A stretch of 64,000 nt of DNA from a virus. Below are positions 226 through 62,027 of the stretch, piece after piece. A program made the translations under genes and the position numbers. The notes beneath the pieces are model-generated. The model was not told where the DNA came from. It was given only the letters and a program-made list of their open reading frames with translations, and ran no database searches. The stretch covers positions 1 through 64,000 of IMG/VR virus record IMGVR_UViG_3300003323_000915; one strand, given 5' to 3'. Numbering within the stretch: the stretch's first letter is position 1; every line of letters begins with the position of its first letter.

Positions 226-989
226 GCGATAAATCTCAAGTTTATTTTTTGTCTACTTGCGTGGACGATTTCCTTTCCGACAATGATTTGCATAATGGAT
301 TTTTTCAAAAGGCATTGAAGTGGGCTCAGCGCGCAGTGAGAGAAATAAGACTTGATGTATTTCAGCATCCAAAAACGGTACTACTGAATGTTACTGAGCG
401 GAATACCATAGTTCTTCCTGAAGGATTTGTGGACTGGACAAAGGTTGGAGTCAAAAAGGGACAGTACGTTGTCACGCTGGCTCTTAATGACGACCTGAAT
501 ACACTTGAGCGTCATAAAAATGATGACAAGGTGATTGGCTTACTAAGTCAGCATATGCCTAACGGAACAAACCTGAACACATACGGAGGATATTCATTCT
601 ACAATTTCAATGGAATGAGTTTTCTTGGGTATGGCGGCGGACTTCCGAGCAAGGGATATTTTAAGATTGTGGATCATGGGGAGTGCAAAGAAATGTACCT
701 CGATTACGACTACAACTACAAGCAAGTGTACGTGGAGTATATCACCGATGGCATTAAGCCTTGCGAGCACACCGTTCTCCATCCGTACGAGTATGACTAT
801 GTATTAGCATACATGGAAATGATGTACGAAAAAAAGAACAATCCAAAGGCAACAAATTATTCAAAGGACGAGGCAGGTCGAGATTTATTTTTTGCTGAAA
901 AGAAATTAAGAGCGCGGTACAATGAACTTGATCCTCGCACACTGATAACAATGAGCCGAGCAGAGGCAAGAGTTACTACTAAACTTTAA
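222..989 (+). CDS. Virion ring / tail tubular protein (crAss-like)
   Basis: 255 aa; LPEGFVDWTKVG and YVEYITDG motifs resemble crAss-like ring proteins; lies directly upstream of the muzzle gene. Confidence 0.65.
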   Translation: MSDKSQVYFLSTCVDDFLSDNDLHNGFFQKALKWAQRAVREIRLDVFQHPKTVLLNVTERNTIVLPEGFVDWTKVGVKKGQYVVTLALNDDLNTLERHKNDDKVIGLLSQHMPNGTNLNTYGGYSFYNFNGMSFLGYGGGLPSKGYFKIVDHGECKEMYLDYDYNYKQVYVEYITDGIKPCEHTVLHPYEYDYVLAYMEMMYEKKNNPKATNYSKDEAGRDLFFAEKKLRARYNELDPRTLITMSRAEARVTTKL

Positions 990-992
990 AAG

Positions 993-3900
993 TTGGACGC
1001 CGCAGAATCAGTCTTCATTCCTCTTGGCGGAGTAAACCAAGATGATAGCATCGTAACGCCGGTTCAAACATCGAGTGGCGACAGATCGCCATTTGAGATT
1101 GGGGATTATAGGTATGCACTGAACACACGAATAGGGTCAAGTCGGCACGACAACTTTGGAGATGTCGAGAATATAAAAGGTACCCAAAAGGTAACAACCT
1201 ATATTCCATCAGTCGAAAGGGAGACATGGACAAATGATAATCCGACATTTACCGGATCAATCGCAGGATGGCTGCAAGCTGGCGGATCTCCGGAAAAAAC
1301 ATGGGCATATGGATCTGGCGGTGGGTATTTCGGGGCCAAGGTGACTCTATCATCAGATGATTCAACTGAGCGGTTGTATCAATCAGAGAGCATTACAGCT
1401 GGAGATTATCTGGCAATTGAATACACATTCGGAAGGGATGTGGTGGTCTCAGATCCATCACTGATTGTCGGTCTGTATCTTGTTTTTATGTCTGGTGTGA
1501 CTGAACTATCATCGCTATACATTGACAATTTAAATTCATACGGCCCAGGTATATCAAATCCAGGGAACTCAATGAACATGCTAAGTCCGGTGACATGTGA
1601 CGGCATTGGCTTTAAGGTAGTGGTTTCTGGGTCTGGATCGTTATCAAATATTAAATACTCATTCAATAAATTCAAAATAACGCATATCTTCTCAACACCA
1701 GGGCCTCCACCATCCGGAAGGAGCAAGAATATCGGAAAGTATGAGGATCTTGAATTTCAACAGATTTACAATTGCAACTGGAATGAGAATGGCCAGCACA
1801 CTATAACTCGATGGGATGTTGCTACCAACACGATAATAGAAATTCTGAGATGGGAGGGTCTGAACTTCCAGGAAAATTCTTTTGTCAAAATGGCCAAGCT
1901 GGATAACTGGATCTCCTTCACAGACAAGATAAATCCACCGAGACTGATTGACACAAATACAATCAGTGATCTATTCTTGATCCTTGGCGCTGAGAATTTC
2001 AGGGAGTTCCACATCTCCCATCATAAATGGGCGCCAATCATGCCACCCGTGACAAGGATATTGTACGATGGATCACATAATAATTACGAGAAATTAAAAA
2101 ACAAAGCATACCAATTCTCATACCGATACATCTACAAAGGGAAATTGAAATCAAGATTCAGCCCAATCAGCAAGGCAAATGTAACTGCAAGCTGCGGTTT
2201 CTTCTATAGTCCTGGTCCTGGATTTACTGACAAGAGAATAACATCTATCGAGGTTGACATTCCAGGAATGTTATTGGATGTTCCTGGCGCATCAACGCAA
2301 TACAATTATTTCGATCATACTGACGTAAAATTTATAAACGCAGTTGAAACGATTGAGGTTGCATACCGGGAAGGTGAATTAGAGTTGTGGAAGTTATGGA
2401 TGCGTATACCAGTGACACCGGCTATACAACGGCTTTATTATTTCACTGGGGATGCGGACAATACACCAATTCCACAGGAAGATTTTAATCAGTTGTTTGA
2501 TACAGTTCCATTTTTAGCTGGTACTGTAGAGGCTGTTGATAATAGATTTGTTTACGCCGACTGCTTAAATGAGCAGCAGACTATGGATAATCTTGACATA
2601 ACAAATATGTCGGTTGTTCATAGCGATTTAACCGGATGGGCAAGTTCTTATCCCGGTGGATTCCCGGCGGTATCTCCTGTAGTTCAGGATGAGCTGTCAA
2701 GACTTAATAGTCTAAGTCAATTCTCTTTTAAACAGAGGGGTAAATATAAACTGGCGATACAATTCTTTCACCCGACAGGATGGAGAAGTGCTGGATATAC
2801 AATCGACACATGGGGGTATGATTCAGCCGATGTTCCAAAAAATGATCTTGTGGCGTTCAACTTCAAAATACCTAGTGGGGTCGTTCCTCCGGAGTGGGCC
2901 GTTGCTTATCAAATCATGCGAACTAACGTCCTTAATATTGATTTCTTCATGACCGGTATTGTGAATCAATTAATCCCTGTTATAGATAGCGTTGATACAA
3001 TTCTTGATCGGATATCAATTCCTGACAACACGAAGCAAGTTATTCGAGAACATTTCGCTAATAGCAAAATTGTATCCGGATACGATGCGGCTTCTTTTAC
3101 AGAAAGTTCTATTCAGCAAGAGATAGATGCAAGAGAAAGAGCAGCTCAAAATGATGGATGGAATAAGCTGCTCAAACTCAACGAAAATATTGGTAAGTTT
3201 TCCGGGTTCCCGGAACTTGCGCTATCAAATAAATTCCTAAACAAAAACCTTCGTCACAATCCCATTATTGGAGATCTCGCAAACCAAATATTAAAAGTTC
3301 AACAAACCAATATCATAAACGATTGTAGTCGTATTATGATAGACATAAACAACTGGTACAATGCCGCAAAAAAAACAGCAACGGCTGATCAGCCTACGGT
3401 AAACAAGCTTTTCTATAATTACCGAGTTGGAGACAGGGTCAGATTTACCGGAAGCGACGTGGCAAATCCGTCAAATGTAAATCAGACCAAGATTTATGAT
3501 GTCCCGATAATTTCATTTACCGGCAAGGCAATATTGATTGAGCGCCCAGCTGGTCTTATGTGGATACCAGGCCCAACATCATTCTCCGCTGATGATTTTA
3601 TAATTGAGGTATACACCCCAAAGACTGCAAATGAAAGTGATTTCTTCTACTACGAAACCGGTGAGGTGTATCCTGTGCTGTATCCGGGTAAATCGAATAG
3701 AGATTTTGCAAAAAGAGATTGGACGTATACTAATAACGCGGCGGTAACATCAAGCACGTACGGGCCGTTCAATTTTTTCAATAAGTTACCATTTTTCTAC
3801 GCCGACTGTCTTGCTGTATCAAGAACTGTGTATCGGGATTACTTAAGCTCAATGTCTCCGGCATTTTTATCTGGTGCTACAGGCATCAGCATGAATCCTG

Positions 3901-6139: not shown

Positions 6140-8026
6140 ATGGCGTACAGGGAATTCCACTATGAAAAGCAGTATGCCGCCCCTGACGCAAGTCAGTTCA
6201 TGGACCACACCACTCAGGCTGTGGCTCATCTTTTTGATTCCGTGCGCCGAAGCCGCGAAGAACGGATAAAATCAACAAACCAATTCGAGTATGACCTGTC
6301 GAATGGCGCCTTTGATAACGACCAAAAGATTCTGACTGAGTACGCTAAAAATGTGGTTAATGCTGGTAAAAACGAGATTTACCATACCGGCAAAATAAGT
6401 AATGACACAGCCTCAAAAATGGCTCAAGGAAAGTCGTTGCAGCAGCTGAGTAAAATACAGATGGAGAAGACAAAAAATCTCCAATCTGAAATATTATCCC
6501 GTGACGCAAAAGATCCATACTACGACTCCAGTCTGGACATGAACCGGCTGAAGGTGGCTGTGAATGGAGAGGACAATAACGTGAACATGTTCGACAGGTC
6601 TGATAGACTGGTAATGTTCGAAAAGCAACTCGGCGGCATCGATTCATTCAAGTACAACAACTACAAGGCTGATTTTGTAAAGGCGTCAGGCCAAAGATAC
6701 AGGGAGCAAACGACTGGCAATCCTAACGCTACAAAGACAAGATATGATCAAGCTACGTTTTGGGATGACTCAACCGGCAAGCCTGGGGTAACAGATAAGC
6801 ACGCGATTGATTACATCAACAGCGATCCTCAGGGAAGAGTTGATCAGTACTTCAACAAAAAGGTAAATAACCAGCTTGATGACGAGATCAAAAAGATGAA
6901 ATCGAGTGGTGATTCCCGTGTGGCATGGATGAAAGGCAAAAGCGATGCCGAAATCAAGAATGAGTTAATAAATGATCCATCAAAAAATATCATCAACAGC
7001 CAGGATTACGGTGTTCGTAAAAGGAATTTAGCGAAGGCCGACCTGCAAGAAGCAGACCGGATAAACACGAAGGTATCAGTCGACTATAAGGCCGACAAAA
7101 ATCCCAATGCGTCTTTGTATAAGAACGACAATATTGCCCACGGCTACTCATTCAATAACTCGAAGTCAGTTGGCGCCGAGCCAGGGAAGGCTCCCGCGGC
7201 ATTTGATAATCCGGGCCCCGGCGGAGTGTTGTTCCAGAAGAACGGTAAACCTATCACCTTCAGCTCGACCACTCCGATCAGGACTGACATAAATACCGGC
7301 AGAACAAACCGCTCAAAGATTGGAAGCGTACCATTCAATCTTACTGGATACCAGTTACAGGCATTCAACACAAACGGTTACCCTGTCCTTCTCCACGGCA
7401 CCGATACGCAGTCGATGATTGACTATATCAACAACATGCCACTGGATTATTTCGATCCTAACGGTAAGTTTAAGTTACAGCCGGAGTTAAAGGTTGCTTT
7501 GCAAGGGTACACCGTAAATCAAGCTCACATTCTTAATGCGGCAAACAATAACGAGCAGGAAATTCAATCGCGAATCTCCGCCGCCGCAAATGCCAACGAC
7601 CAAGACAAGGTGGCGATCGAGGAGGAAAATCTTGAGAAGCTGAGAACGCTTAAAAAACTTATTGGTTCTGGTGTCGACGATCAGGAATTGGCGCTCGCCG
7701 CGAGCCGAGCCGGAATAAATGGTGTCCAGGTAAACGAACTTGTGCAGGCATCTGATCAGGACTTGTCAAACATCAATGCCATCACGCAAGGTTTGAACCT
7801 GAAAGATAAGTCAAAATGGAACGACGACATGCTCCGTATTGATCAGGCATATCGAAACAGATATCAGCAAGCGGTTGCTGCCGGATTTAAGCCAGTTGCA
7901 GAAAAGAAGCCAGCACGACAAAAAAACTCAGTTCCAACCGTCTCCAGCGCAGAAGATTACGATAAAATACCACCTGGCGGAAAATATATGGACCCGGATG
8001 GTAATGTCAGGACAAAGAAAAAATAA
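6140..8026 (+). CDS. Internal virion (ejection) protein
   Basis: 628 aa; C-terminal VPTVSSAEDYDKIPPGGKYMDPDG motif of the kind seen on podoviral ejection proteins; synteny. Confidence 0.6.
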   Translation: MAYREFHYEKQYAAPDASQFMDHTTQAVAHLFDSVRRSREERIKSTNQFEYDLSNGAFDNDQKILTEYAKNVVNAGKNEIYHTGKISNDTASKMAQGKSLQQLSKIQMEKTKNLQSEILSRDAKDPYYDSSLDMNRLKVAVNGEDNNVNMFDRSDRLVMFEKQLGGIDSFKYNNYKADFVKASGQRYREQTTGNPNATKTRYDQATFWDDSTGKPGVTDKHAIDYINSDPQGRVDQYFNKKVNNQLDDEIKKMKSSGDSRVAWMKGKSDAEIKNELINDPSKNIINSQDYGVRKRNLAKADLQEADRINTKVSVDYKADKNPNASLYKNDNIAHGYSFNNSKSVGAEPGKAPAAFDNPGPGGVLFQKNGKPITFSSTTPIRTDINTGRTNRSKIGSVPFNLTGYQLQAFNTNGYPVLLHGTDTQSMIDYINNMPLDYFDPNGKFKLQPELKVALQGYTVNQAHILNAANNNEQEIQSRISAAANANDQDKVAIEEENLEKLRTLKKLIGSGVDDQELALAASRAGINGVQVNELVQASDQDLSNINAITQGLNLKDKSKWNDDMLRIDQAYRNRYQQAVAAGFKPVAEKKPARQKNSVPTVSSAEDYDKIPPGGKYMDPDGNVRTKKK

Positions 8027-11000
8027 TGGGTAAACAGGTAAAATGGACGCCTCCGGAGGATGATTTAGTCGTTGACCAAAACGAACAGGAAAAGCCTGCC
8101 CAAAAATGGACGCCTCCTGAAGAGGATGCCATCGTTGAGCCAGTAAAAAAAAAAGACCAGCCGAATCAATCAGCTTCTTCGAGCGACTCGCAAGATCTTG
8201 GCGAGCCTTCTGGAAAGAGTACAACAAATACTCCGCAATTAAGCGAAAAACAAAAAGCAACATTTCGCGAAAATGTACTAAAGACTCCGGAACAAAAAAA
8301 GGCTGAAGATCTTAAGAATAAATTCGTTGATACCCAGCTGAAGGACGCCGTTGGAATAGACGAAACCCAATCCAAAGGGTTTACTGAATCATTCCTGCGC
8401 ACCGTTCAATCCGGGTTATCTGATCAAATCCCAAAAGAGTATTACGCGCAACGCCTGCGTATGAGCAAAGGTAACTTTGGTGATCTGTACGATCGTAGGA
8501 GTGACATCAATGCGTTTGGCGGCCCTGAATTCAGTAAGCAGTTACCAAAGGGCACATCCATCGACGCATTTTCCGAGTGGAATAATAAGCAGGATTTTAA
8601 GACAAAACAAAAATCGTACGATGAGCGTGCGAAGCTATTCTTAACCGAGAAACTTGGTGCGAAAGGATTTGAAGATCTGAAACAAAAGTTCATACAAGAA
8701 AACCAGGAAGAAAGGCTTGGATATGAGAAGAATATCCAGCAGCAAAATCAGGAGGTGGCAATTAAAACAGCTGGGGTTACACAGGATCTTAAAGGCATAA
8801 ATGGCGCCGGGGACTTCCTGAGCTTTGCAGGAAATATGATCGGACAGGCGTTATACCGAGCCCCGATCAATCTTGGTACCGGTCCGGCAGGATCAATCAT
8901 TTCAGAATCAGCATCTATCTACGATCAGCAACTTGATCTCATCGCGCAAAAGGAAGGCATCTCCCGGGAAGAGGTGATAAAGAGAGGCCTGGATAAACCA
9001 GCCGAAGGGCAGGCGCTGGCGGTGCTGGCCGGTACGCTGGATGCCGCCAGCGAATTCAATATCGTTGGTCTATTCAAGAAAGCCGCCGGGAAGCAATTGA
9101 CTGAGAATGTCGTCAAGCAATTTGTGAAAGGATTTGTGCGTGGCGCAGCACCAGAAGCGGTGACTGAGGCTGCCCAAGGAGAAATTGAGGAATTCGCCGC
9201 ATCGAAAGGAGCAGGCACAGAGTATCACCCAGACGCATGGCGAATCGCCACAAACGCAGTTGGAGCATTCATTGGCGGAGGAGTTCTTGGAGGTGGCGCG
9301 AATGTGAAGCTGAGTCCTATCTTGAAATCAATGCCGACACAGGACGTAGTCAACACCGCGACAACCGGACAGTCTTCTAACAACATAAAGTCAATTGAAC
9401 AAGCTGCCGATATTATCGACGCAAAAGTCCAAGACGCAGATGATACGACTGTCACCAAAGAGGTGAAGCAAGAAGAGCAATCAACACAACCAGAATTCAA
9501 GGAACCAGTAATAACACAAAACCAAGGAGACGATGCCTTACAAATCAGCGAGCCAACGGGCGTACTTCCAAGTTCACAGGAAGGAACTGGAAGCGAAGGG
9601 AGTGAACGTGGAGGAGTGGAACCAGTCGAGCAAGGGACTGGTACTGCCGAACAAGGTAGCCAGCAAAAAGAAGCTGGCAGAACGAATGAAGGAACGCAAG
9701 AAAAGAAAAGCATCTTAAATCAAGATACAGATTTAACAGGAGAACCGAAGGAAGACTTTATGCTTACTGAAGGTGAGCAAATCAAGAAAGTTCCAGATAA
9801 AAAATCTTTAGTTAATAAATTAGAAGAAATAGGGGCTCCTAAAAAATTGATTGAGAGTATCAGCAAATCAGCTACTCTTGAAAATTATAATTCACTGTTG
9901 ACACTTGGTAAGGTATATCATACATTGAATAATGCGGGTATAGAAAATAAAATTTACATCTCTAATCTCAGTAAATTATTCGGATATAAAGACACAATAG
10001 TACACGAGGCAGTTCATCTCGCTAGTATCGTTGCGATCGATGACTATCTGTATGAAAAGGAAAATGATGTTAAAGTGAGGTATCTAACAGATTCACAAAG
10101 GGAATCACTTGATTATATTGATAACATTTTTCAGAAGGCTAAGAAAAAATCAAAAGTAAAGACATATGGTTATACTGATCTGCATGAATTTTTTGCTGAG
10201 TTTATATCAAGCGAAAAATTCAGGAATAGATTATCCAGAGATTTAGAGAGTAAGTCAATTGTTCGGCGAGTAGCTGACTCTATAATTAATTTTATAGAGG
10301 AATTAACAGGACTGAGTCTATCGAAATCTAAAAATAATGATGTACTAGAGCAGCTTAATAAAATTAATAGTGAAATTGAAAACGTGTATGATGGCCGCAA
10401 TAAAGTAATACAAGAAGCTGTTAGATCCGGTCGATATGTAGCCTACATTCATTTAGGCAAAATGACAGCTAACGATGCAAAAACTATCATAGAATCAGCT
10501 GGAATAAAAGTTCCTGACTCCATACTTAAACTTGCAAAAGAGGAAAATAATAATTCACAACAAAACACTGTAGAAAATGAAAACGTACAGCAACAAGAAC
10601 AAACCGAAGCTGGGCTCGGGGGGCAGATTCAAAGCACTGAAGGAGAAACTAAGCAAAGAGAAAGGGGTGGAGAATCCGGGCGCACTCACAGCCAGCCTGG
10701 GAAGGAAGAAATACGGAGCGAAGAAAATGGAGGCAATGGCCGCCAAAGGAAAAAAAGCCTCCTGAACCGAGCGCACGAAGGAGTCAGTGATGAGCAGGTA
10801 AAATCGTCGATCGAAAAACATGGCCTTACCTATGAAGTTGAAAGCCATATATCCGCTGAGAAGTCAGCACAGAAATTTATTGATGACGTCGGCGTAGAAA
10901 ATGCAATAGAGGCTGTACGAAATAACGAAGTGGACGATGGCGCCGCCGCGTTCGTGTGGGCAAAAGCAATTGACGAAGTCGGACGTAAGCTCGCAGCAGC

Positions 11001-13812
11001 CACCGATAAAAACGAGATCAAGGAACTCACCGATGCGCAGACAAATCTCATCGACGAGTTTGATAAGAAAGCACGTTCCGGCGGCCGGTTTATTTCCGCT
11101 CTGCAAGACGTGTACAAGTCTTCTGATTTTGCATACAAAGCGGATTACCAGATCAAAAAATACAAAGAGGTCAATAACGGAAAAATACCGAAGGAGATTG
11201 AGGAAAAATTCCGTGACCTTGAAACAAAGCTCAATGCCGCCAATGAGAAGCTTCAAAAGTTAGAAGAGTCTCGAGGAAAAGAGTCTTCGAAAAAAACCGT
11301 ACAGGATATCCGCACCGATCTCCAAGCGCAAAAGGAACGCAGAGCAAAACTTGCCAAGGAACGAAAGGAGAAGATTGATAACTTCTTCGATTCACTGAAA
11401 GTAAAGAGTGATCCAAATAAACTAAACTCCATCACGCAAGTGATTGGTGAGTCTGTTTGGAATGGTTCTATCGAAGTTATGCGTGCCGCTGTGCTTGCCG
11501 GATCTGATGTCGCTATGGCTGTACAGGCCGGAATTGACTACGTGAAAGAACATTACCGAGGAAGCGATTTCGATGAGAATCAATTCAGGACAACTGTCGA
11601 GCCTGGCATCGAAAGGCTGGTGCCGACCGAGGAGGATGTAAAACTTCCGACGATGCGTAACGGTAAGCTGTCAATTCCACGGGCGTTAATACGTCAAGTA
11701 GTGGAGTCAGGCGCAAATACGATTGAGGAGGTAACAAATGATATTCACGATCTGATAAAAGACTCAATGCCGGAAGTGTCTGTTCGTGAAGTGCGTGATG
11801 CTATTACCAAGTACGGCGAGACGCGATCCTTGAGCAAGGAAGATCTTGATGTTAAAATACGCGAGCTAAAACGTGTCGGACGATTGGTGTCATCCCTGGA
11901 AGATGTTCAAAATAAATTACGACCACTGCGCAGTGGTCTTCAGCGCGACAAACTCACCGATCAGGAGCGCCGCATGCAACGGCAGGTCAAAGAGGCAATG
12001 AAGGATTTACCCATCGATGAAGATGAACTTAACCAGCAGTGGAAGACAGCGCTTGATGCCGTAAAATCACGCCTTAAAAATCAGATTTCAGATCTCGAAG
12101 ATCAGATAAAAACAGGTGAAAAAACACCGAAGAAAAAAGGCATAAAATATGACGAAGAAGCGACTGCTTTAAAGAATCAGCGCGATGCTTTGAAAAAAGT
12201 AATAGAGGATATTAACGGCAAAAACGGTATTTCTACCGAAGAAAAAGTACGTTTGGCGATAAAATCAGTAGGAGATAGTATTGCTGAATATGAGCGCAGA
12301 ATTCGTGAAAAAGACTTCGATAAAAAGAAAACTGAGCTTACACCTGAGACTCCGGAATTAAGGGAGATGCGCGCGAAGCGTGATCAGATAAAACAGGTAT
12401 ACAAGCAGCTTGAGAAGGATCTCGGTATTGCCGACAAAAAGAAGCTTGAAGCGTACAAGAAGAACATCAAAAAAACTATTGATCGGTATGAGTCGAGGAT
12501 AAAAAATAAGGATTTCGTCACAGAGAAAAAGAAGCCGCTTGACTTGGATAAAGAGGCGAAGGATTTGCGTATCGAACGCGATAAAATAAAATCTGAGTTT
12601 GAACTTGAGCAAGAAAAAAACAGATTGAATAATCGATCGCTGAGCGAAAAGGCATGGGATACTTTTGTTGATGTGGTAAATCTTCCAAAGTCAATGCTTG
12701 CATCGATCGATATGTCAGCGCCATTCCGCCAAGGTGCTGTACTTTCGTTTGCTAATCCGAAAGCCGGCGCTGCATCTTTCGCTGAAATGTTCCGTCAGGC
12801 GTTCTCCGAAAAGAAAGCAACCGAGTGGCTGGCCAAACTCAAAGAAAGCCCGGTATATGACACGATCAAGAAAAGTAAACTATATATCGCGGAACCGACA
12901 ACGAAACTGACTGCAAAGGAAGATCAGTTCATCTCCAATTTCGCGAGTAAAATTCCGCTGTTCAAAATCCCGTACAAAGCCAGTGAACGGGCGTACACCG
13001 GGTACCTGAATAAGCTCAGAGTTGATGTGTTCGTGAATGGTGCCGACAGACTGCAAGAAGCCGGGTTTACACCTGAATCAAATCCAGAGGCATACAAGGC
13101 TTGGGCTGATTTCATCAACAACGCTACGGGCCGCGGTAACCTTGGCGCACTGGAGGAGGCGGCAACAGTGCTGAATGGATTCTTCTTCTCGCCGAGGTTT
13201 GTAGCATCAAGGGTAAATCTCATGAATCCGATTAAATACGCAAAGATGCCACCAGAAGTTCGCAAGATGGCGATGAAAAATATGATCGCTTTTGTCGGGT
13301 TTAGCGCATTAGTGTTGACTATTGCAAGTGCGGCCGGCGCCGATGTTGAGCATGACCCACGCAGCTCTGATTTTGCCAAGATGAGAATCGGAGACACACG
13401 TTACGATATCCTTGCCGGATTCCAGCAGGTGATACGCCTTTTCGCTCAGCTTTCTTCCGGGCAACGGAAGAGCACAAGCACCGGTAAAATTACAGATCTT
13501 GATGGCAAGAAATTCCCGTTCGAAAATCGTGGTGATGTAGCATTGCGATTTGCTCGATCAAAGCTGGCCCCATCCGCAGGCAGCACGGTGAATTTACTTA
13601 CAGGAAAAGACATTGTAGGCCAGGAGGTTACCATTGAAGGCGAGGCGGTGAAGAATGTGATCCCTCTTTACATCCAAGATATTTATTCATTATACCAGAA
13701 AGAGACGCCAACTGGTCTTGTCTCATCGTTGATCCCGGCATTTTTCGGGGTTAGTGTACAGAACTATAGCAAGAAGAAGGAGAAGCCAAAAGAACCAATT
13801 TCTCCATGGTAA
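8026..13812 (+). CDS. Giant internal virion/ejection protein with zincin-like metallopeptidase segment and long coiled coils
   Basis: 1928 aa; HEAVH (10003-10017) plus downstream YGYTDLHEFFAE; G/A-rich hydrophobic segments; no RNAP DxDxD motif recognised. Confidence 0.7.
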   Translation: MGKQVKWTPPEDDLVVDQNEQEKPAQKWTPPEEDAIVEPVKKKDQPNQSASSSDSQDLGEPSGKSTTNTPQLSEKQKATFRENVLKTPEQKKAEDLKNKFVDTQLKDAVGIDETQSKGFTESFLRTVQSGLSDQIPKEYYAQRLRMSKGNFGDLYDRRSDINAFGGPEFSKQLPKGTSIDAFSEWNNKQDFKTKQKSYDERAKLFLTEKLGAKGFEDLKQKFIQENQEERLGYEKNIQQQNQEVAIKTAGVTQDLKGINGAGDFLSFAGNMIGQALYRAPINLGTGPAGSIISESASIYDQQLDLIAQKEGISREEVIKRGLDKPAEGQALAVLAGTLDAASEFNIVGLFKKAAGKQLTENVVKQFVKGFVRGAAPEAVTEAAQGEIEEFAASKGAGTEYHPDAWRIATNAVGAFIGGGVLGGGANVKLSPILKSMPTQDVVNTATTGQSSNNIKSIEQAADIIDAKVQDADDTTVTKEVKQEEQSTQPEFKEPVITQNQGDDALQISEPTGVLPSSQEGTGSEGSERGGVEPVEQGTGTAEQGSQQKEAGRTNEGTQEKKSILNQDTDLTGEPKEDFMLTEGEQIKKVPDKKSLVNKLEEIGAPKKLIESISKSATLENYNSLLTLGKVYHTLNNAGIENKIYISNLSKLFGYKDTIVHEAVHLASIVAIDDYLYEKENDVKVRYLTDSQRESLDYIDNIFQKAKKKSKVKTYGYTDLHEFFAEFISSEKFRNRLSRDLESKSIVRRVADSIINFIEELTGLSLSKSKNNDVLEQLNKINSEIENVYDGRNKVIQEAVRSGRYVAYIHLGKMTANDAKTIIESAGIKVPDSILKLAKEENNNSQQNTVENENVQQQEQTEAGLGGQIQSTEGETKQRERGGESGRTHSQPGKEEIRSEENGGNGRQRKKSLLNRAHEGVSDEQVKSSIEKHGLTYEVESHISAEKSAQKFIDDVGVENAIEAVRNNEVDDGAAAFVWAKAIDEVGRKLAAATDKNEIKELTDAQTNLIDEFDKKARSGGRFISALQDVYKSSDFAYKADYQIKKYKEVNNGKIPKEIEEKFRDLETKLNAANEKLQKLEESRGKESSKKTVQDIRTDLQAQKERRAKLAKERKEKIDNFFDSLKVKSDPNKLNSITQVIGESVWNGSIEVMRAAVLAGSDVAMAVQAGIDYVKEHYRGSDFDENQFRTTVEPGIERLVPTEEDVKLPTMRNGKLSIPRALIRQVVESGANTIEEVTNDIHDLIKDSMPEVSVREVRDAITKYGETRSLSKEDLDVKIRELKRVGRLVSSLEDVQNKLRPLRSGLQRDKLTDQERRMQRQVKEAMKDLPIDEDELNQQWKTALDAVKSRLKNQISDLEDQIKTGEKTPKKKGIKYDEEATALKNQRDALKKVIEDINGKNGISTEEKVRLAIKSVGDSIAEYERRIREKDFDKKKTELTPETPELREMRAKRDQIKQVYKQLEKDLGIADKKKLEAYKKNIKKTIDRYESRIKNKDFVTEKKKPLDLDKEAKDLRIERDKIKSEFELEQEKNRLNNRSLSEKAWDTFVDVVNLPKSMLASIDMSAPFRQGAVLSFANPKAGAASFAEMFRQAFSEKKATEWLAKLKESPVYDTIKKSKLYIAEPTTKLTAKEDQFISNFASKIPLFKIPYKASERAYTGYLNKLRVDVFVNGADRLQEAGFTPESNPEAYKAWADFINNATGRGNLGALEEAATVLNGFFFSPRFVASRVNLMNPIKYAKMPPEVRKMAMKNMIAFVGFSALVLTIASAAGADVEHDPRSSDFAKMRIGDTRYDILAGFQQVIRLFAQLSSGQRKSTSTGKITDLDGKKFPFENRGDVALRFARSKLAPSAGSTVNLLTGKDIVGQEVTIEGEAVKNVIPLYIQDIYSLYQKETPTGLVSSLIPAFFGVSVQNYSKKKEKPKEPISPW
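9533..9718 (+). CDS. Small basic protein overprinted in the +1 frame of the giant gene
   Basis: MPYKSASQRAYFQVHRKELEAKGVNVEEWNQSSKG..; resembles small phage proteins starting MP(F/Y)KS.xQR; ATG start, A at -3. Confidence 0.6.
   Translation: MPYKSASQRAYFQVHRKELEAKGVNVEEWNQSSKGLVLPNKVASKKKLAERMKERKKRKAS
10577..10765 (+). CDS. Second small basic protein overprinted in the +1 frame of the giant gene
   Basis: MKTYSNKNKPKLGSGGRFKALKEKL..NPGALTASLGRKKYGAKKM; shares MKTYSNK with the 54816..55304 product; A-rich start context. Confidence 0.65.
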   Translation: MKTYSNKNKPKLGSGGRFKALKEKLSKEKGVENPGALTASLGRKKYGAKKMEAMAAKGKKAS

Positions 13813-30589: not shown

Positions 30590-31956
30590 ATTAGTTTGCA
30601 GTTATTGTTCGTTGATAAAGTAAATCCCATTCATTGGCGGTCCGTCGTATGGCTCGTGCTTCATACTACACGCATCGTTGATCGATGAGAAAAACCATGC
30701 TTCGAACCAGTCGGTTGTGTTGTAAACTCTATAGTTAATGCGGATGGTGTAGAGGCGGTTCATTTTTTTTCTAGCATTTAGGTTCCCCCTTCCAATATTT
30801 TATCTACAGATTAGCCGATAACCGACCCATGCAGGTTTGATTCCATTTAACTTTCCTTTGCTTTTACCTTTGACGGCTTTCGAATTTTTATCGTTGGGAT
30901 GCGCGTCGGCTTTATATCGATGATCAAACGCCATCATATTATTTTCATTGATATATAAATCGGGATTATCATCTTCCTTGACTAATATCCCCAAGCGGAT
31001 CATTAGATCAATAATATGTGTTGGTTGTTCCATGTCTAAAATTAGTTTGCTTTGATGTTTGGTTGTTCAATCGATATATTGTCTCTGTGATCCTGGCATG
31101 GCTTAGATAAACAACCGGATGCGCAGAATAAACTTTGCTCTATGCGTGTTAATTCGTCGGCTGTTTGTCCTGTGTGGCATGCGATTGTCCTGGATGTGCC
31201 GTCTTTGAATTTTAATTCAAGAACTGGCGTAGCCCAGTAACTTCCGCTGATGCCGCCTAAAATTTCTTTATTGAAATCTTCTGTAAATCCTGATTCACTC
31301 GACCAAACTTGAGTTGCTGTCCAAAACCAATCCTCATGCATACCCATCGTAGCTTCTTCAATATTTGGAGTTGAGATGATGATTTGTTTTGCGAGAATGA
31401 AGTTGTAGTCTGCCATGATTCCTAAAATTAGTTTGCTTTGTTTTTTAATTTCTTCACGCGCCAAACACCCATGATTATCGCGCAATCTTTATCGTGTGGA
31501 TCTGCATACCATACTTGGATCTCTTTAGCGGATGCTATATAGAAATAGTATTTACCGATCTTACTTTGGGTGTACAGTTCCATAATTAGTTTGCGCTTAA
31601 AGACCTGTGCTTGATTAAATTCGTTTCATGGATGTGCTCCCAGAGCCAGACTGCCCAGGGTTCGTCGCTAATGTCGAAGATAACGGTTTCGCCGCCGCGG
31701 GTGTAGCTGTATTCTATTTTGGTGCCAGTGAATATAAATTTCTCTACGTGGAAGATCGAGCGCGATAAAATAAACTCGATTCCGCCGGCTATCTGCTTTA
31801 AATAGAACCCGTACTTCTTCACGTCTACCGTTCCGGCCATCATTCGCACAACAGCGTACTTCTGCATTCGCATTAATTCCATGGCATGCTTTCGTAATGC
31901 CGTTCGCTCTTTCTTGTCTTCAATGCCAATGAATTGTGTTTTCATAATTAGTTTGC
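30590..31956 (-). repeat. Gene-junction repeat GCAAACTAAT (5 copies: 30590, 31041, 31427, 31585, 31947)
   Basis: ATTAGTTTGC on + strand, each just upstream of a minus-strand start codon. Confidence 0.75.
30800..31945 (-). CDS. Small hypothetical genes (30800..31033; 31042..31416; 31428..31583; 31586..31945)
   Basis: Starts re-assigned using the junction repeat; 31428..31583 (MELYTQSK..KNKAN) is not in the ORF track. Confidence 0.55.
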
Positions 31957-54454: not shown

Positions 54455-54819
54455 AAACACTGATCCTTGGATTGCTATTAATTTCGGCGAATCTTTCCGC
54501 TCAGAATTTTTATTCCGAGTTGAACGAATACCGAAAAAGACATTTTCTTCGGCCGCTTGAAGTTGACTCAATGCTCGAGATCGAATCCAAAATTCAGATC
54601 AATAAAATCATCAATAGGTGGCATGGCGGCCTTGTTCACGGATCGGTGAATGATAAAAATCACAAATTCAAGACTGAAGTTTTGAATAAAAATTGTGAGT
54701 CAGATCTGATATGCTGGCTCGAAAGCCCTCCGCATAAGAAGGCAATTTTAAGTCGTAAGGCGCGAAAAATAGGCTATGCTAAAATCAATAACATAGCCTG
54801 CGCAAGACTTACAGATTAG
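54451..54819 (+). CDS. Secreted CAP/SCP-domain protein
   Basis: Signal peptide MKTLILGLLL; LNEYR..L.PL, WLESPPHKKAIL..IGYA. Confidence 0.8.
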   Translation: MKTLILGLLLISANLSAQNFYSELNEYRKRHFLRPLEVDSMLEIESKIQINKIINRWHGGLVHGSVNDKNHKFKTEVLNKNCESDLICWLESPPHKKAILSRKARKIGYAKINNIACARLTD

Positions 54820-55304
54820 CGGCCGCGCTTCAATATTGCACGAACTTTATTCTTGTACATCGTACCTCCGCCTTTTGTCGGGCTGTCTGTACCATACGTC
54901 ATAGCCATTGGCTTCAATCTTCCGCCGGACTTGCCGGTTGATTTTTTCTCAGGCGCTGGAGTCTTTTTATTCTCAACAACGGCAGCTGGTTTCGGAGTGA
55001 CTTTTTTAATTTCAGGCTTATTTACCGGAATTTGCACGTCAACTTTATCGGCATCTTTCTTCACGGTGGTCACGCCGGCACGATATGGTTTCCCGTCTTT
55101 GTAGGCAATGTCCTGTTTTTTTGCGCGGGCATCTTCAATAAAGTCGGCATCTTTGTTCTCAGCGTTCTCTTTTCCATAACGCTTGTCACCAGTCAATGCG
55201 CGTGACGGTGTATACGTTTTTGTTTCTGCGCCTCTCTTGAAAGAGAGTGACACACCTGATTTTTTTGGTTGGCCTGGACCTGTCTTGTTACTGTAGGTTT
55301 TCAT
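54816..55304 (-). CDS. Lys-rich basic low-complexity protein
   Basis: 162 aa, K/P/G-rich; begins MKTYSNK; divergent from the packaging operon. Confidence 0.65.
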   Translation of the reverse strand: MKTYSNKTGPGQPKKSGVSLSFKRGAETKTYTPSRALTGDKRYGKENAENKDADFIEDARAKKQDIAYKDGKPYRAGVTTVKKDADKVDVQIPVNKPEIKKVTPKPAAVVENKKTPAPEKKSTGKSGGRLKPMAMTYGTDSPTKGGGTMYKNKVRAILKRGR

Positions 55305-55309
55305 TTTCG

Positions 55310-55317
55310 TATCTTTG
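55310..55317 (+). promoter_or_regulatory. Bacteroidota-type -7 promoter box TATCTTTG (also TAAATTTG 58007, TATCTTTG 60738)
   Basis: Matches TAnnTTTG, 14-22 nt upstream of late-gene starts. Confidence 0.6.
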
Positions 55318-55331
55318 GTTAAAATTTTAGT

Positions 55332-55868
55332 ATGGTAAAATTTTCAGACTTTGATGTATGTCAATCGTTCGTACACAAAGATAAAGCAAAAATACTGTCA
55401 TACATATCCCTGCTTTACGATCGGGAATCATCACTCAACGGAATCCAGAATTTATCCGACCGAAAGAGGGAAGCTTGCAGTCGAGCGAAGCTTGATGCGA
55501 GAGATCCAGAGATAATATCCATTATGGACATGCAGCATGAGCAAGTCAACAAACTGATATTCGCCTACCTGTCGCAGTTTCAGAATAGTAACGCATATCA
55601 TAAGCTGTGCTCCGATCAGCAACTATTCTGGGATATCCAGAAAATATTAATGAGCCCAGGTGGAACGGATGATGAAGATAAATTGATGGAGAAGTACAAG
55701 AAGCGCGGAGATTTATCAAAAACCGCCGATCAATTGCTGACAACAATAAATAAGCTGTTCTCTGAAATATACAAGGATGACGACGTCCAAGAAGTTGCCG
55801 CCACAATGATGAGGCAGATGCTTCGTCCAGAGGACAGAGTAAGACAGAAAGAGAGGACTAATGTTTAA
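55332..55868 (+). CDS. Putative terminase small subunit
   Basis: Helical 178 aa overlapping the TerL start. Confidence 0.45.
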   Translation: MVKFSDFDVCQSFVHKDKAKILSYISLLYDRESSLNGIQNLSDRKREACSRAKLDARDPEIISIMDMQHEQVNKLIFAYLSQFQNSNAYHKLCSDQQLFWDIQKILMSPGGTDDEDKLMEKYKKRGDLSKTADQLLTTINKLFSEIYKDDDVQEVAATMMRQMLRPEDRVRQKERTNV

Positions 55869-58002
55869 TCCGACAAACAATCCATATCGATTCCAGTATC
55901 TAATCACTGCAATAACCGGAGGAGGCATTCAACAGGTATTTCTTCCGGATGTTCCGCCTGACGCTGAAATTCTTTTCCATAAAGAACAAAAATGGGTTCG
56001 CCCTCAGCCAACGGAAGCAACTCGTAGAGCCATCAGGGAATACGCGAAAAGAGTACAGGAGGATAAAAATTATATCCACCCGATGCAGATGCAGATCAAT
56101 GAATGGGCGGATCAAGAATGGGAAAGGTCTGAGAAAGGCGTCTGGATATGGATTAAAGGTGTGCCTACGTATATCACCGGTTTTTATTACTGGTATTTAA
56201 CTTCTTGGCAGACGACGTTCGGATTTCCGATGTATCGCGAAACCGACAAGGAGCTCACATACCTGCTTCAATTCTGCGAAGAAGATCCGGACTGCTACGG
56301 TTTATTATTGAACACAGTCCGTCGGTACGGTAAATCTTCCCTGATGGGTGGATGGGGAATGTATCGAACAACACGTAACAAAAATCATTATACTGGCTGC
56401 CAAGGAGAAAATGATCACAAGGCAGGATTGTTTTATACCCAGATGATTCGATCGCCATTTAAAAAATTGCCGTTTTATTTTTTACCGAGATACGACACTA
56501 CATCGGCATTAACCTCCGACATAAAATTTGAACGTCCGGTTGAGAGAAGCAGACTCGCCGTGATTGGTGATTTTGATGAATCTGAAGATCTTGAATCAAG
56601 ACTTGATTACCGAGCATCTGGTGTTGCCGAATACGACGGTAGTGTACTGCATACTTACCTCATGGAGGAGGCCGGTAAGATATTGAATTGTAATGTGAAT
56701 GACCGGTGGGCTATCGTGAAACCTTGTCTTCGGAAAGGTAAAGATCTGCGGGGAAAAGCCTTCATGGGCACTACCGTAGAATTTATGGATTCAACAGGTA
56801 AGGGAGGACGCGCTTATAAAAAATTATTTTACGAAAGCGACTTTGATCAGAAGCAGCCTGACAAGAGAACGAAGAGTGGACTGTATGCATGCTTCCTCCC
56901 TGGAGATTGCGCACATGAAAGTTTCTTAGATGAATGGGGACGACCGAAGCGAGAAGAGGCGAAAGAATGGATCTTACTCGAGCGTGAATCGTATAAGGAC
57001 AACCCGAAAGAATTATCCGGCGTGATCCGTCGGTACCCATTATACATCCGAGAGATTTTCTACATCAACACCGATCGCTGCGAATTCAACGCCACAATTC
57101 TTCAAGACAGAAAATCAGAACTTGAATCATTACCCGAGCCAATTCTTGTTAAAGGTGAATTTTACTGGGTTGACAATAAAAGATTTGGCGAGGTTCGGTT
57201 CAGGCACAATCAGTACACTGGCTGGGCATGGATACATTCACTGATTACAAATCCAAAAGAAACAAACCTTGTTCAGCGAAAACTTGGACATGACAGGCCT
57301 ATTTTTGCTCCAACAAACGACGCGAAATTTATTGCCGGAGTTGACCCGGTTGATCACGGTGTGGTTATCGAAGGCAAAGGTGGGGATGAAGAATACATCA
57401 GCACGCGCCGGTCGAAGCCGGTGCTGTTTGTGAAGCGGAAATACGACTCATCGATTGATGGTATCATAAGTCAAGAAATTTTAGAGCAACGCGCGAAAGA
57501 AAAATTTCCATACAAAACCAATCGGTACGTCGCTATGATGGATGTTCGTCCAAACGACCCGCTTGTTTTTTACGAACGAGCGTTGATGATGATGTGGTAC
57601 TTTGGATGCAGCCTGCATGCAGAGTCTCAAAAGCCAGGCATCATGAATTATTTTCACGAGCACGGATGCGGTGACTTTATTTTACAAAAGTATGTAGCCG
57701 AAAGTGGGTACAAGCGGAACATGACCATGGACGGAACACCAGCCAGCGGACCAATCATTCAGGAGTACACCGGCGCGCTGGCGACTTACATTGAGTACTT
57801 CGGACACACCATACCGTTTGTTGATCTCGTTGAAGATTTATTGATTTTCAATCCAAAAAAGACAACGGAACATGACTACTCTGTGGCGGCCGGGTTCACG
57901 GAAATGGCGTGCAAGATTCAGCCGAAAACTTACACTTTACCGGTGATCGATATTCACGATTTCATGCCCGGTTTTGATGAATATGGGAATGTCGTTGCAT
58001 AA
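55861..58002 (+). CDS. terL: Terminase large subunit (crAss-like)
   Basis: YITGFYYWYL, RRYGKS (Walker A), MEEAGK (Walker B), AGVDPVD nuclease, HAESQK, HDYSVA. Confidence 0.9.
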   Translation: MFNPTNNPYRFQYLITAITGGGIQQVFLPDVPPDAEILFHKEQKWVRPQPTEATRRAIREYAKRVQEDKNYIHPMQMQINEWADQEWERSEKGVWIWIKGVPTYITGFYYWYLTSWQTTFGFPMYRETDKELTYLLQFCEEDPDCYGLLLNTVRRYGKSSLMGGWGMYRTTRNKNHYTGCQGENDHKAGLFYTQMIRSPFKKLPFYFLPRYDTTSALTSDIKFERPVERSRLAVIGDFDESEDLESRLDYRASGVAEYDGSVLHTYLMEEAGKILNCNVNDRWAIVKPCLRKGKDLRGKAFMGTTVEFMDSTGKGGRAYKKLFYESDFDQKQPDKRTKSGLYACFLPGDCAHESFLDEWGRPKREEAKEWILLERESYKDNPKELSGVIRRYPLYIREIFYINTDRCEFNATILQDRKSELESLPEPILVKGEFYWVDNKRFGEVRFRHNQYTGWAWIHSLITNPKETNLVQRKLGHDRPIFAPTNDAKFIAGVDPVDHGVVIEGKGGDEEYISTRRSKPVLFVKRKYDSSIDGIISQEILEQRAKEKFPYKTNRYVAMMDVRPNDPLVFYERALMMMWYFGCSLHAESQKPGIMNYFHEHGCGDFILQKYVAESGYKRNMTMDGTPASGPIIQEYTGALATYIEYFGHTIPFVDLVEDLLIFNPKKTTEHDYSVAAGFTEMACKIQPKTYTLPVIDIHDFMPGFDEYGNVVA

Positions 58003-60761: not shown

Positions 60762-62027
60762 ATGGCAAAAGAAATTTATTCATTCGACGACGACAAAATG
60801 GTAGCGGTTGAGCCTCCAAAAAAAGAGGAGAAACAACCCGAAGACACATCTGCACCAGACGAAGAGAACGAAGAAGAACCGGAAGAAGGTGAGGAGGAAG
60901 AAAAGAAAGAAGAAGCCTCTGAAGATGATAACACCAAGGAAGAATTAGAGGAAGAAATTGAAAGTGAAGAGCATCCAGCCGAAGAAGAGCAAGAAAAAAC
61001 AGAGAGCAAGTCTGACGAAACTCCAGATAGTGAGATAACGCCAGATGAGGTAATTCAAGATCTATTCTCGGAAAAATATGGCATCAAATCTGAATCAGAA
61101 TTCCAAGAAATTCTGGATCAGTCGATCGAGCTACTTGACGAAAATCAGAAGCTCGAAGCCAAAATAAAAGAACTCGAGAGTGCGCCAAAAGGTCCGGCAT
61201 TCAAGAGTGAAAATCAAAAAGCCATTTATGAAATGATCAAGGATTACGATCCAGATCGCGTTCCTGATGGGCTCAGTATGATCGCCTCTTTGGTTGGGAT
61301 GGATCTTAAGACCACCGACACAAAATTGATTCTGCAACAGGAATTCATCATGCAGCATCCGGAACTATCCATTGACCGGGCTCGTAAGAAATTCGAAAAT
61401 GAATACAATAAGTTGTACGCCATCGACGAGGAATCATTTGACGACGCCGAAAAACTGAAAGAGAAGAAGGAAGATGTGGAGAGCGACCTGATAATCGCCC
61501 GCAAGCGCGCAACAAAGTTCATCCAAGAAAAACAGCAAGAATTTAAAACAAAAAGCGAGGAAAAAGAGGAATCAGCAAAGGTAAACGAAGAAGTTCAGGC
61601 ATCGATCGCAAAGACAACGTCTGAATTTAACGAGTACTTCGATGGTCTTCATACCCTCGTGATACCGAAGGAAGAAGGCGACAAGACGCCTTTTAAGTAC
61701 AAATTCAGCACTGAAGAACTTAAAAGGATCAAAATTGTAGTCGACAACCATCTCAAAAATCCTGGCGCGTATGACGCGAAAGGTAAGTTAGTTGGAGGTT
61801 TTGACGCTCACCAAAACTTCGAAACGGCAGCATTTGCTGTCTGCGGTCTAAGAATAACCGAGGAAGCCTTGAAATTCGCAAAGAATATGGCTCAGAGGAT
61901 GAAGGCCGAGGATATCGCAAAACGCAAACCAGAAAGAAAATCGAGCGAAAAGAGCCAGCCGGTAAGCATGAGCATCGACGCTCAGGCAGAACGTTTGGCG
62001 CAAAAAAAGAAGGCAGAAAGGTCATAG
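60762..62027 (+). CDS. Acidic scaffolding-like protein
   Basis: Very E-rich N-terminus; between portal and capsid. Confidence 0.65.
   Translation: MAKEIYSFDDDKMVAVEPPKKEEKQPEDTSAPDEENEEEPEEGEEEEKKEEASEDDNTKEELEEEIESEEHPAEEEQEKTESKSDETPDSEITPDEVIQDLFSEKYGIKSESEFQEILDQSIELLDENQKLEAKIKELESAPKGPAFKSENQKAIYEMIKDYDPDRVPDGLSMIASLVGMDLKTTDTKLILQQEFIMQHPELSIDRARKKFENEYNKLYAIDEESFDDAEKLKEKKEDVESDLIIARKRATKFIQEKQQEFKTKSEEKEESAKVNEEVQASIAKTTSEFNEYFDGLHTLVIPKEEGDKTPFKYKFSTEELKRIKIVVDNHLKNPGAYDAKGKLVGGFDAHQNFETAAFAVCGLRITEEALKFAKNMAQRMKAEDIAKRKPERKSSEKSQPVSMSIDAQAERLAQKKKAERS

Follow-up and report, generated by a model that had tools for sequence, protein, structure and literature searches.

Two open reading frames (ORFs) that lie far apart in the genome of an uncultivated virus begin with the same seven amino acids, MKTYSNK. 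What keeps these starts alike: a signal in the peptide, other information carried by the same codons, the needs of translation initiation, copying of DNA, or chance? The window analyzed here, by which we mean the whole 64-kb stretch of DNA, is part of a 77,248-bp virus record (G000). One of the two ORFs encodes p162, a free-standing basic protein of 162 amino acids (pI 10.1; 24% Lys plus Arg), and the other, B, is nested within a much larger gene. The features concerned are as follows.

54816–55304, minus strand: gene for p162, lysine-rich, a lone transcription unit divergent from the putative small-terminase/TerL operon
54771–54799, minus strand: terminator-like hairpin, an 11-bp stem and then a T run, directly past the p162 stop codon
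55284–55304, minus strand: codons 1–7 of p162 (MKTYSNK); Asn6 and Pro10 are each retained by at least 90% of the 25 closest homologues
8026–13812, plus strand: virion-module gene of 1928 amino acids, host of nested ORFs A (9533–9718) and B, with homologous segments in relatives
10577–10765, plus strand: nested ORF B, 62 amino acids, in the +1 frame of the 1928-aa gene; a member of the KLGSGxRF...GRKKYGAKKM small-protein family, with a six-residue extension (KTYSNK) after the start Met
10577–10597, plus strand: codons 1–7 of B (MKTYSNK); the host frame here reads N-E-N-V-Q-Q-Q-E

The initial annotation had stated that p162 and the ORF at 10577 both begin with MKTYSNK, in different codons, about 44 kb apart and on opposite strands, and all of this was borne out, with both ORFs verified. 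p162 starts ATG AAA ACC TAC AGT AAC AAG (ORF start MKTYSNKTGPGQPKK) and B starts ATG AAA ACG TAC AGC AAC AAG (ORF start MKTYSNKNKPKLGSG), and the separation is 44.7 kb. At the DNA level the two starts are identical at 24 of 26 nt, a stretch that takes in 4 nt upstream (GAAA, untranslated) and 1 nt downstream; outside these 26 nt, no DNA similarity between p162 and B was found. Homology of the proteins beyond the start was rejected, as BLASTP aligns 10 residues only and nothing past residue 10. Homology of the families was rejected as well: hhalign of the two family alignments gave a probability of 0.14, and against a hidden Markov model (HMM) of free-standing B, p162 members reached no better scores than shuffled sequences did. 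Since the two families are otherwise non-homologous, the match is not due to common descent of the whole proteins.

Nor does base or codon composition account for it. N-terminal 7-mers shared among ORFs of at least 40 amino acids occur 0.005 times per random window (Markov-2), and 26-mer pairs with at most two mismatches number two in the real window and none in eight Markov-3 windows. A search with a 24-nt pattern, allowing up to three mismatches, matched only the p162 and B sites (0.00 in 100 shuffles). When the host-frame codons of the local linker around the B start were shuffled, 0.03% of the shuffles produced the motif in the +1 frame (P = 0.0003). A rate of 0.005 per window nevertheless means that chance matches are expected in a very large scan, so the weight rests on the relatives rather than on a single window. 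A search of 2.9 million viral contigs for the exact MKTYSNK coding pattern gave four matches, of which one is in a relative, two are in unrelated proteins and one is junk; by a rough estimate this is about the number expected by chance. As only one of the four lies in a relative, MKTYSNK was rejected as a general phage signal. Besides the p162–B match, the window has a single pair of near-identical 26-mers, at 2089–2116 and 31426–31453, which contains AAAAAACAAAGCA[TA]AC[CT]AAT and overlaps the CAAAGCAAACTAATT junction motif.

Five related virus records were used for comparison: G001 (77.3 kb), G005 (77.9 kb, with terminal repeats) and the fragments G002, G003 and G004. G000, G001 and G005 served as complete genomes for scans with a strict motif. 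The carriers are a group of uncultivated podophage-like viruses of about 77 kb; judged by TerL (25% identity), the cultured phages closest to them are podophages of Flavobacterium and Cellulophaga. Because of these relatives and of the promoter type described below, the host probably belongs to the Bacteroidota. The sequencing runs listed for this DNA comprise one DNA run, from a root metagenome, and no RNA run.

Exact identity of the p162 and B heptapeptides is found in G000 only. The p162-type and B starts are MKTYSNK and MKVHSNK in G001 and MKIFTNV and MKVYSNK in G005, and residues 3–4 of the two proteins agree in G000 alone. What recurs among the relatives is a looser form, M-[KQA]-[TIV]-x-[ST]-N-[KV], which is specific to the lineage and is borne by three unrelated families of small lysine-rich proteins. 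The strict version, MK[TIV]x[ST]N[KV], stands at two, three and three ORF starts in G000, G001 and G005, respectively, compared with none in 150 Markov-2 random genomes, and no unrelated ORF start in these three phages fits it. A looser pattern applied to six genomes also matched unrelated starts, and in G001 a looser pattern matched the start of an unrelated enzyme (MKIFTNG) whose orthologue lacks the motif. Only about five positions of the motif are defined, and its bearers number two or three proteins per genome. Ser or Thr is encoded in the motif by AGT, AGC, TCA, TCT, ACA, ACC and ACG, and Asn by AAC and AAT. Since the Ser codons alternate between AGY and TCN while the residues are kept, the constraint is on the peptide, at least in the third family, p72. 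The initial annotation had placed the identity at the protein level and had suggested looking for MKTYSNK-like starts in related genomes. The first idea holds insofar as residues are kept across relatives while codons change, and the second in that the looser motif occurs on three families, but the exact heptapeptide pair is confined to G000 and the exact peptide is not general.

The p72 family (about 70 amino acids) was unexpected. Unrelated to p162 and B, it was found by scanning G001 with a pattern fixed beforehand. Its gene lies between two tail-module genes, of 256 and about 1370 amino acids, in G001 (G001:C1 1434–1652), G005 (G005:C1 58087–58308), G002 and G003, and its start codon follows the stop of the upstream gene by 4–10 nt. 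The starts read MKIKSNK (G001), MKISSNK (G005), MQTYSNK (G002) and MAKIKTNK (G003), and each is followed by a variable K/S-rich tail and then by a conserved core, I-S-N-G-[FYW]...N-P. As [ST]NK recurs inside the K/S/N-rich tails, low-complexity composition contributes. p72 is missing from G000, where the flanking genes are 3 nt apart (window 989–993). A homologue search with p73 returned only two proteins. A protein identical to P0171 (p73 of G005) is present in NCBI under a metagenome-assembled genome labelled Cyclobacteriaceae bacterium, a label that is a weak hint of the host group or else a binning error.

p162 has 25 homologues at E ≤ 0.01, and in a set of 1.8 billion proteins its small family forms 45 clusters at 50% identity; most homologues sit on Logan or ENA contigs. 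No Pfam or PHROG match was found for p162 and no tblastn match in phage genomes, and neither p162 nor B matched a phage genome collection. Among 64 family members, 28 have [TIVL]-x-[ST]-N-[KVIGLS] in residues 1–12, in starts such as MKTYSNK, MKIRSNK, MKVYSNV and MKVSTNV, and the other 36, which are more distant, lack it. An AF2 model built from the family alignment (pLDDT 69) has a beta-rich core at residues 19–91, a disordered Lys/Pro-rich linker and a basic C-terminal helix, with residues 1–17 predicted to be disordered. Fold searches gave no match in Foldseek (PDB, BFVD), a best Z of 2.0 in VIA-align wide and low scores only in the ESM Atlas. The free-standing gene had been described as divergent from the terminase-portal-capsid operon, and this layout is kept in all five relatives examined: the p162 locus holds its position in G001–G004, and in G005 the slot is taken by a 129-aa ORF (G005:C1 38266–38655, minus strand). 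The protein encoded there is basic and retains the first 15 residues (MKIFTNVTDPSKKSK), 11 of the 15 being of the MKIYSNVTDPGKKKK type; the rest is barely alignable (HMM score 7–9 bits), so that the ORF is at best a highly diverged p162 ortholog.

B, in turn, belongs to a family with 104 homologues at E ≤ 0.01, all free-standing and 50–80 amino acids long, for which no Pfam or PHROG model matched and nothing usable was found in PHROGs or cultured phages. It resembles these proteins in having every conserved residue of the core, K-L-G-S-G-x-R-F ... G-R-K-K-Y-G-A-K-K-M, including the invariant G13, G15, R17, G42, K45 and G47. It differs from them in lying inside another gene and in its extra MK[TV][YH]SNK, since free-standing members start MAKPKLGSG or similar. 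The motif tracks the phage lineage and not the protein family: all three nested cases (G000, G001 and G005) carry it, and none of the 104 free-standing homologues does. The shared start had also been taken as independent support that B is translated; to this it adds little, because homology to more than 100 free-standing proteins already makes the case. A metagenome scan with a segment of the giant gene yielded eight loci, of which the more distant (about 42% identity) lack nested B; G007 was too distant for use in the comparison.

The B start shares its nucleotides with the host frame, which reads N-E-x-x-Q-Q-Q under the motif, and QQQ is kept in all three phages. Lys7 of B is also kept (AAG, AAA and AAA) while the overlapping host-frame residue varies (E, S and K). 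In its own frame, the B start lies 1–2 codons past a stop codon. In G001 and G005, nested ORF A is followed directly by B in a single frame, with only a stop and 1–2 codons between them. About 860 nt separate A and B in G000 (9718–10577; the G001 comparison locus is L005 1498–1899), and read in the host frame, this stretch encodes an additional domain, which contains HExxH (H-E-A-V-H) and is absent from the G001 protein. In G001 the motif also occurs a second time, 12 codons before the B start, where nested ORF A ends MKVRSNKVI-stop. This tandem lies at L005 about 1675–1710 (G001:C1 near 70289, minus strand), and the host frame there reads N-E-G-E-K-Q-Q-S and then N-E-S-T-Q-Q-Q-S.

The p162 start carries a second message of another kind, in the form of a predicted promoter for the divergent terminase operon. 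The features on this side of the gene are as follows.

55332–55868, plus strand: p178, probably the small terminase subunit by position; overlaps the TerL start and has no family match
55861–58002, plus strand: TerL, which matches phrog_6681 at 7e-58
55310–55317, plus strand: TATCTTTG, a Bacteroidota-type −7 box 14 nt upstream of the p178 start, in the gap between the divergent starts
55284–55287, plus strand: cTTG, candidate −33 element of the terminase-operon promoter, antisense to p162 Asn6-Lys7 and 22 nt upstream of the −7 box
55376–55394, minus strand: two candidate −7 boxes for p162 (TATTTTTG at 55394–55387 and TATCTTTG at 55383–55376), within the first p178 codons

A gap of 27 nt separates the start codons of p162 and p178 in G000; in the relatives the gap is smaller or the two starts overlap. 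A perfect TAnnTTTG box stands 12–21 nt upstream of the p178-type start, antisense to p162, in six of six genomes; at a background density of 0.34–0.48 per kb per strand, its presence in so short an interval by chance would be about 1%. In G002, G003 and G005 it is the [ST]-N-[VL] codons themselves that form the box (for example, TCA AAT GTA has the antisense TACATTTG). In G000 and G001 the box is found at the start codon of p162 or immediately beyond, with the S-N-K codons 19–22 nt farther upstream, at the −33 position. In the Bacteroidota housekeeping promoter this position has TTTG or TTG about 19–21 nt from the −7 box; the candidate element is TTTG in G001, at 19 nt from the box, and cTTG in G000, at 22 nt. 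At the −33 position, G002 and G005 have T-rich runs without a clean TTTG. The p162-type genes of G002 and G005 also share a 15-nt block over codons 5–10 that is identical even at synonymous sites. As promoter elements lie antisense in the motif codons, conservation of the p162 N terminus is at least partly a DNA-level constraint, and promoter overlap alone could explain it, including the kept N terminus of the diverged G005 protein.

On the sense strand, a candidate −7 box for p162 lies 48–90 nt upstream of its start, within the first p178 codons, in five of the six genomes. Across positions 55284–55394 of the window, the TAnnTTTG box of each gene, p162 and p178, appears to lie among the first codons of the other or beside them. 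If these mutually embedded boxes are used, the two RNAs would have overlapping 5′ ends. The back-to-back layout, kept in five to six related genomes, could make p162 and the packaging operon a switch that works by mutual interference.

How, then, is the shared start best explained? The reading that we prefer, tentatively and with a probability of about 0.3, is that the motif is a lineage-specific N-terminal arm on small basic proteins, acting at the peptide level through a shared partner. Such a short linear arm, under selection as a peptide and left uncleaved, may dock the small basic proteins on one partner, either DNA or an acidic assembly component, and common docking could bring the bearers into the particle together. 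A candidate for the acidic component is the 421-aa protein encoded at 60762–62027, between the portal and capsid genes, which has no family match and is probably the scaffold; its N-terminal third consists almost entirely of Glu, Asp and Lys. The acidity of this region and the predicted disorder of p162 residues 1–17 would suit an arm of this kind. A co-fold of the scaffold-like protein with p162 (score 0.02) speaks neither for nor against it. The peptide arm is favored by the presence of the strict motif at two or three ORF starts per complete genome and at none in the random genomes, by its occurrence on two otherwise non-homologous families and its conservation on p72 in four phages, and by the turnover of Ser/Thr and Asn codons, which points to selection on the peptide. 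Its distribution (three of three nested B, none of the free-standing B and 28 of 64 p162 family members), the retention of B Lys7 despite change in the host frame and the rarity of the motif in the linker shuffle argue in the same direction. Against the arm stand the small number of defined positions and bearers, the restriction of exact identity to G000, the lack of the motif in 36 of 64 p162 relatives, the recurrence of [ST]NK in p72 tails and the coincidence of the p162 motif codons with a −7 box or −33 element in all six genomes. Part of the conservation would thus have another cause even if the arm exists, as the p162 codons would form the terminase-operon promoter and the B codons overlap the host frame. 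A more specific version is in our judgment quite unlikely: the motif would be an uncleaved virion-incorporation tag of this clade, and a common acidic partner would load its two or three small basic bearers into the particle, among them B, translated from an ORF overprinted inside a giant virion gene.

It is also possible, although we consider it rather doubtful, that the starts have no common function and owe their likeness to chance and to overlapping-code constraints of separate origin. On the p162 strand, the TTTG of the opposite strand appears as CAAA, and this, read as xCA-AAY or AAC-AAA, gives [ST]-N or N-K; in B, the motif would be the +1 shadow of N-E-x-x-Q-Q-Q, as AAT GAA yields ATG AA. 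and CAG CAA CAA yields AGC AAC AA.; the p72 tail would be merely K/S/N-rich, and the Thr-Tyr identity in G000 would be luck. The antisense box in every genome, with the motif codons forming either the box (G002, G003 and G005) or the −33 element (G000 and G001), fits this account, as do the synonymous-site identity of G002 and G005, the retention of host-frame QQQ, the agreement of residues 3–4 in G000 alone, the unrelated MKIFTNG start in G001 and the expectation that a very large scan will return chance matches somewhere. However, a shuffle of the linker that keeps its composition yields the motif in only 0.03% of trials, and B Lys7 is kept while the host-frame residue changes. In addition, p72, which has neither a divergent gene nor an overlapping frame, keeps [ST]-N-K at positions 5–7 in four of four cases although its tail varies, and the strict motif, unlike the looser pattern over six genomes, has no background matches in G000, G001 and G005.

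An explanation at the level of initiation seems unlikely. Bacteroidota are hosts that do not use Shine-Dalgarno pairing for start selection, and the motif could represent an optimal translation start with no address function, consisting of AUG AAA and A/C-rich, G-poor, unstructured codons; this would matter most for the internal start of B and for p72. Consistent with such a role, every instance begins ATG AAA, ATG AAG, ATG CAA or ATG GCA and continues with A-rich codons, B and p72 both start just past a stop codon, and the predicted promoters of G000 are of the Bacteroidota TAnnTTTG type. Yet the capsid and scaffold-like genes, which are expected to be highly expressed, start otherwise, the third codon positions of the motif show no bias to A, and the retention of Asn6 and Ser/Thr5 exceeds what A-richness would need. 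MK starts make up only about 15–25% of genes, and no other gene fits the motif. Very unlikely, in our view, is that the 5′ ends were copied, short-patch recombination or gene conversion having transferred the start of another gene in the same phage to B, and perhaps to p72, so that the patch supplied a working start site and the peptide was dragged along. The near-identity in G000 extends into four untranslated nucleotides, B matches p157 at 13 of 13 nt in G001 (ACAGCAACAAAGC) and p73 at 15 of 15 nt in G005 (AGCAACAAAAAGAAA), and the N-terminal extension of B is absent from 104 of 104 free-standing homologues, all as copying would predict. But since the AGC AAC AA. codons of B are fixed by host-frame Gln codons, these DNA matches are partly forced; similarity ends with the 26 nt, and a hand count of identities in the first ten residues (about 6.0 within genomes versus 5.4 across) gives no gene-conversion signal.

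The nearest known analogue of a peptide arm, as a conceptual parallel, is the capsid-targeting sequence (CTS) that phage T4 places on IPI, IPII and IPIII. The T4 leader is MKTYQEFIAE, and its first four residues match those of p162 and B. A true CTS of the T4 type, which would load internal proteins onto the scaffold core and then be removed by the head protease, is nonetheless highly improbable here. No (L/I)xE cleavage motif follows the shared start, and Glu is missing altogether from residues 1–25 of p162 and 1–22 of B. Pfam and PHROG scans of the ORFs flanking the portal and capsid genes recognized no head protease, although divergent proteases could escape such scans. The genome is podophage-like, with a TerL related to those of Flavobacterium and Cellulophaga phages and not T4-like, and the exact peptide is about as frequent in viral contigs as a rough estimate of chance predicts. 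The proposal in the initial annotation of a capsid-targeting or processing signal analogous to that of T4 was accordingly not upheld. The T4 internal proteins are diverse and are conserved only in the CTS (PMC3012670). One leader on several otherwise unrelated proteins is also what is seen here, for three families, and in both systems a short N-terminal peptide sits on otherwise unrelated small basic proteins and tracks the phage lineage. The T4 CTS has 10 defined positions, and the motif described here has about five, on two or three proteins per genome. Further differences are that one bearer is an overprinted ORF, that the p162 codons would double as an opposite-strand promoter, and that there is neither a cleavage site nor a recognizable head protease. 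If the motif is a true docking or sorting arm, the address-tag principle of T4 would extend to an unrelated uncultivated lineage that seemingly lacks a head protease, and an overprinted gene would be tied functionally to two ordinary genes. If it is a virion tag, the packaged small proteins of the clade would become predictable from sequence alone.

Whatever the function of the motif, the case is a caution on conserved N termini. First codons may be kept for an opposite-strand promoter or an overlapping frame, and a conserved N terminus alone is therefore no evidence of a peptide signal. In this respect, the p162 locus can be compared with the switch regions of phages P2 (Pe/Pc) and 186 (pR/pL), in which divergent promoters are face-to-face or overlapping. 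Unlike in P2 and 186, the partner of p162 is the terminase operon rather than the other half of a lysis-lysogeny pair, and the promoters are predictions. The likeness would lie in the placing of each neighbor's promoter in the first codons of the other, so that the N-terminal codons come under constraint at the level of DNA.
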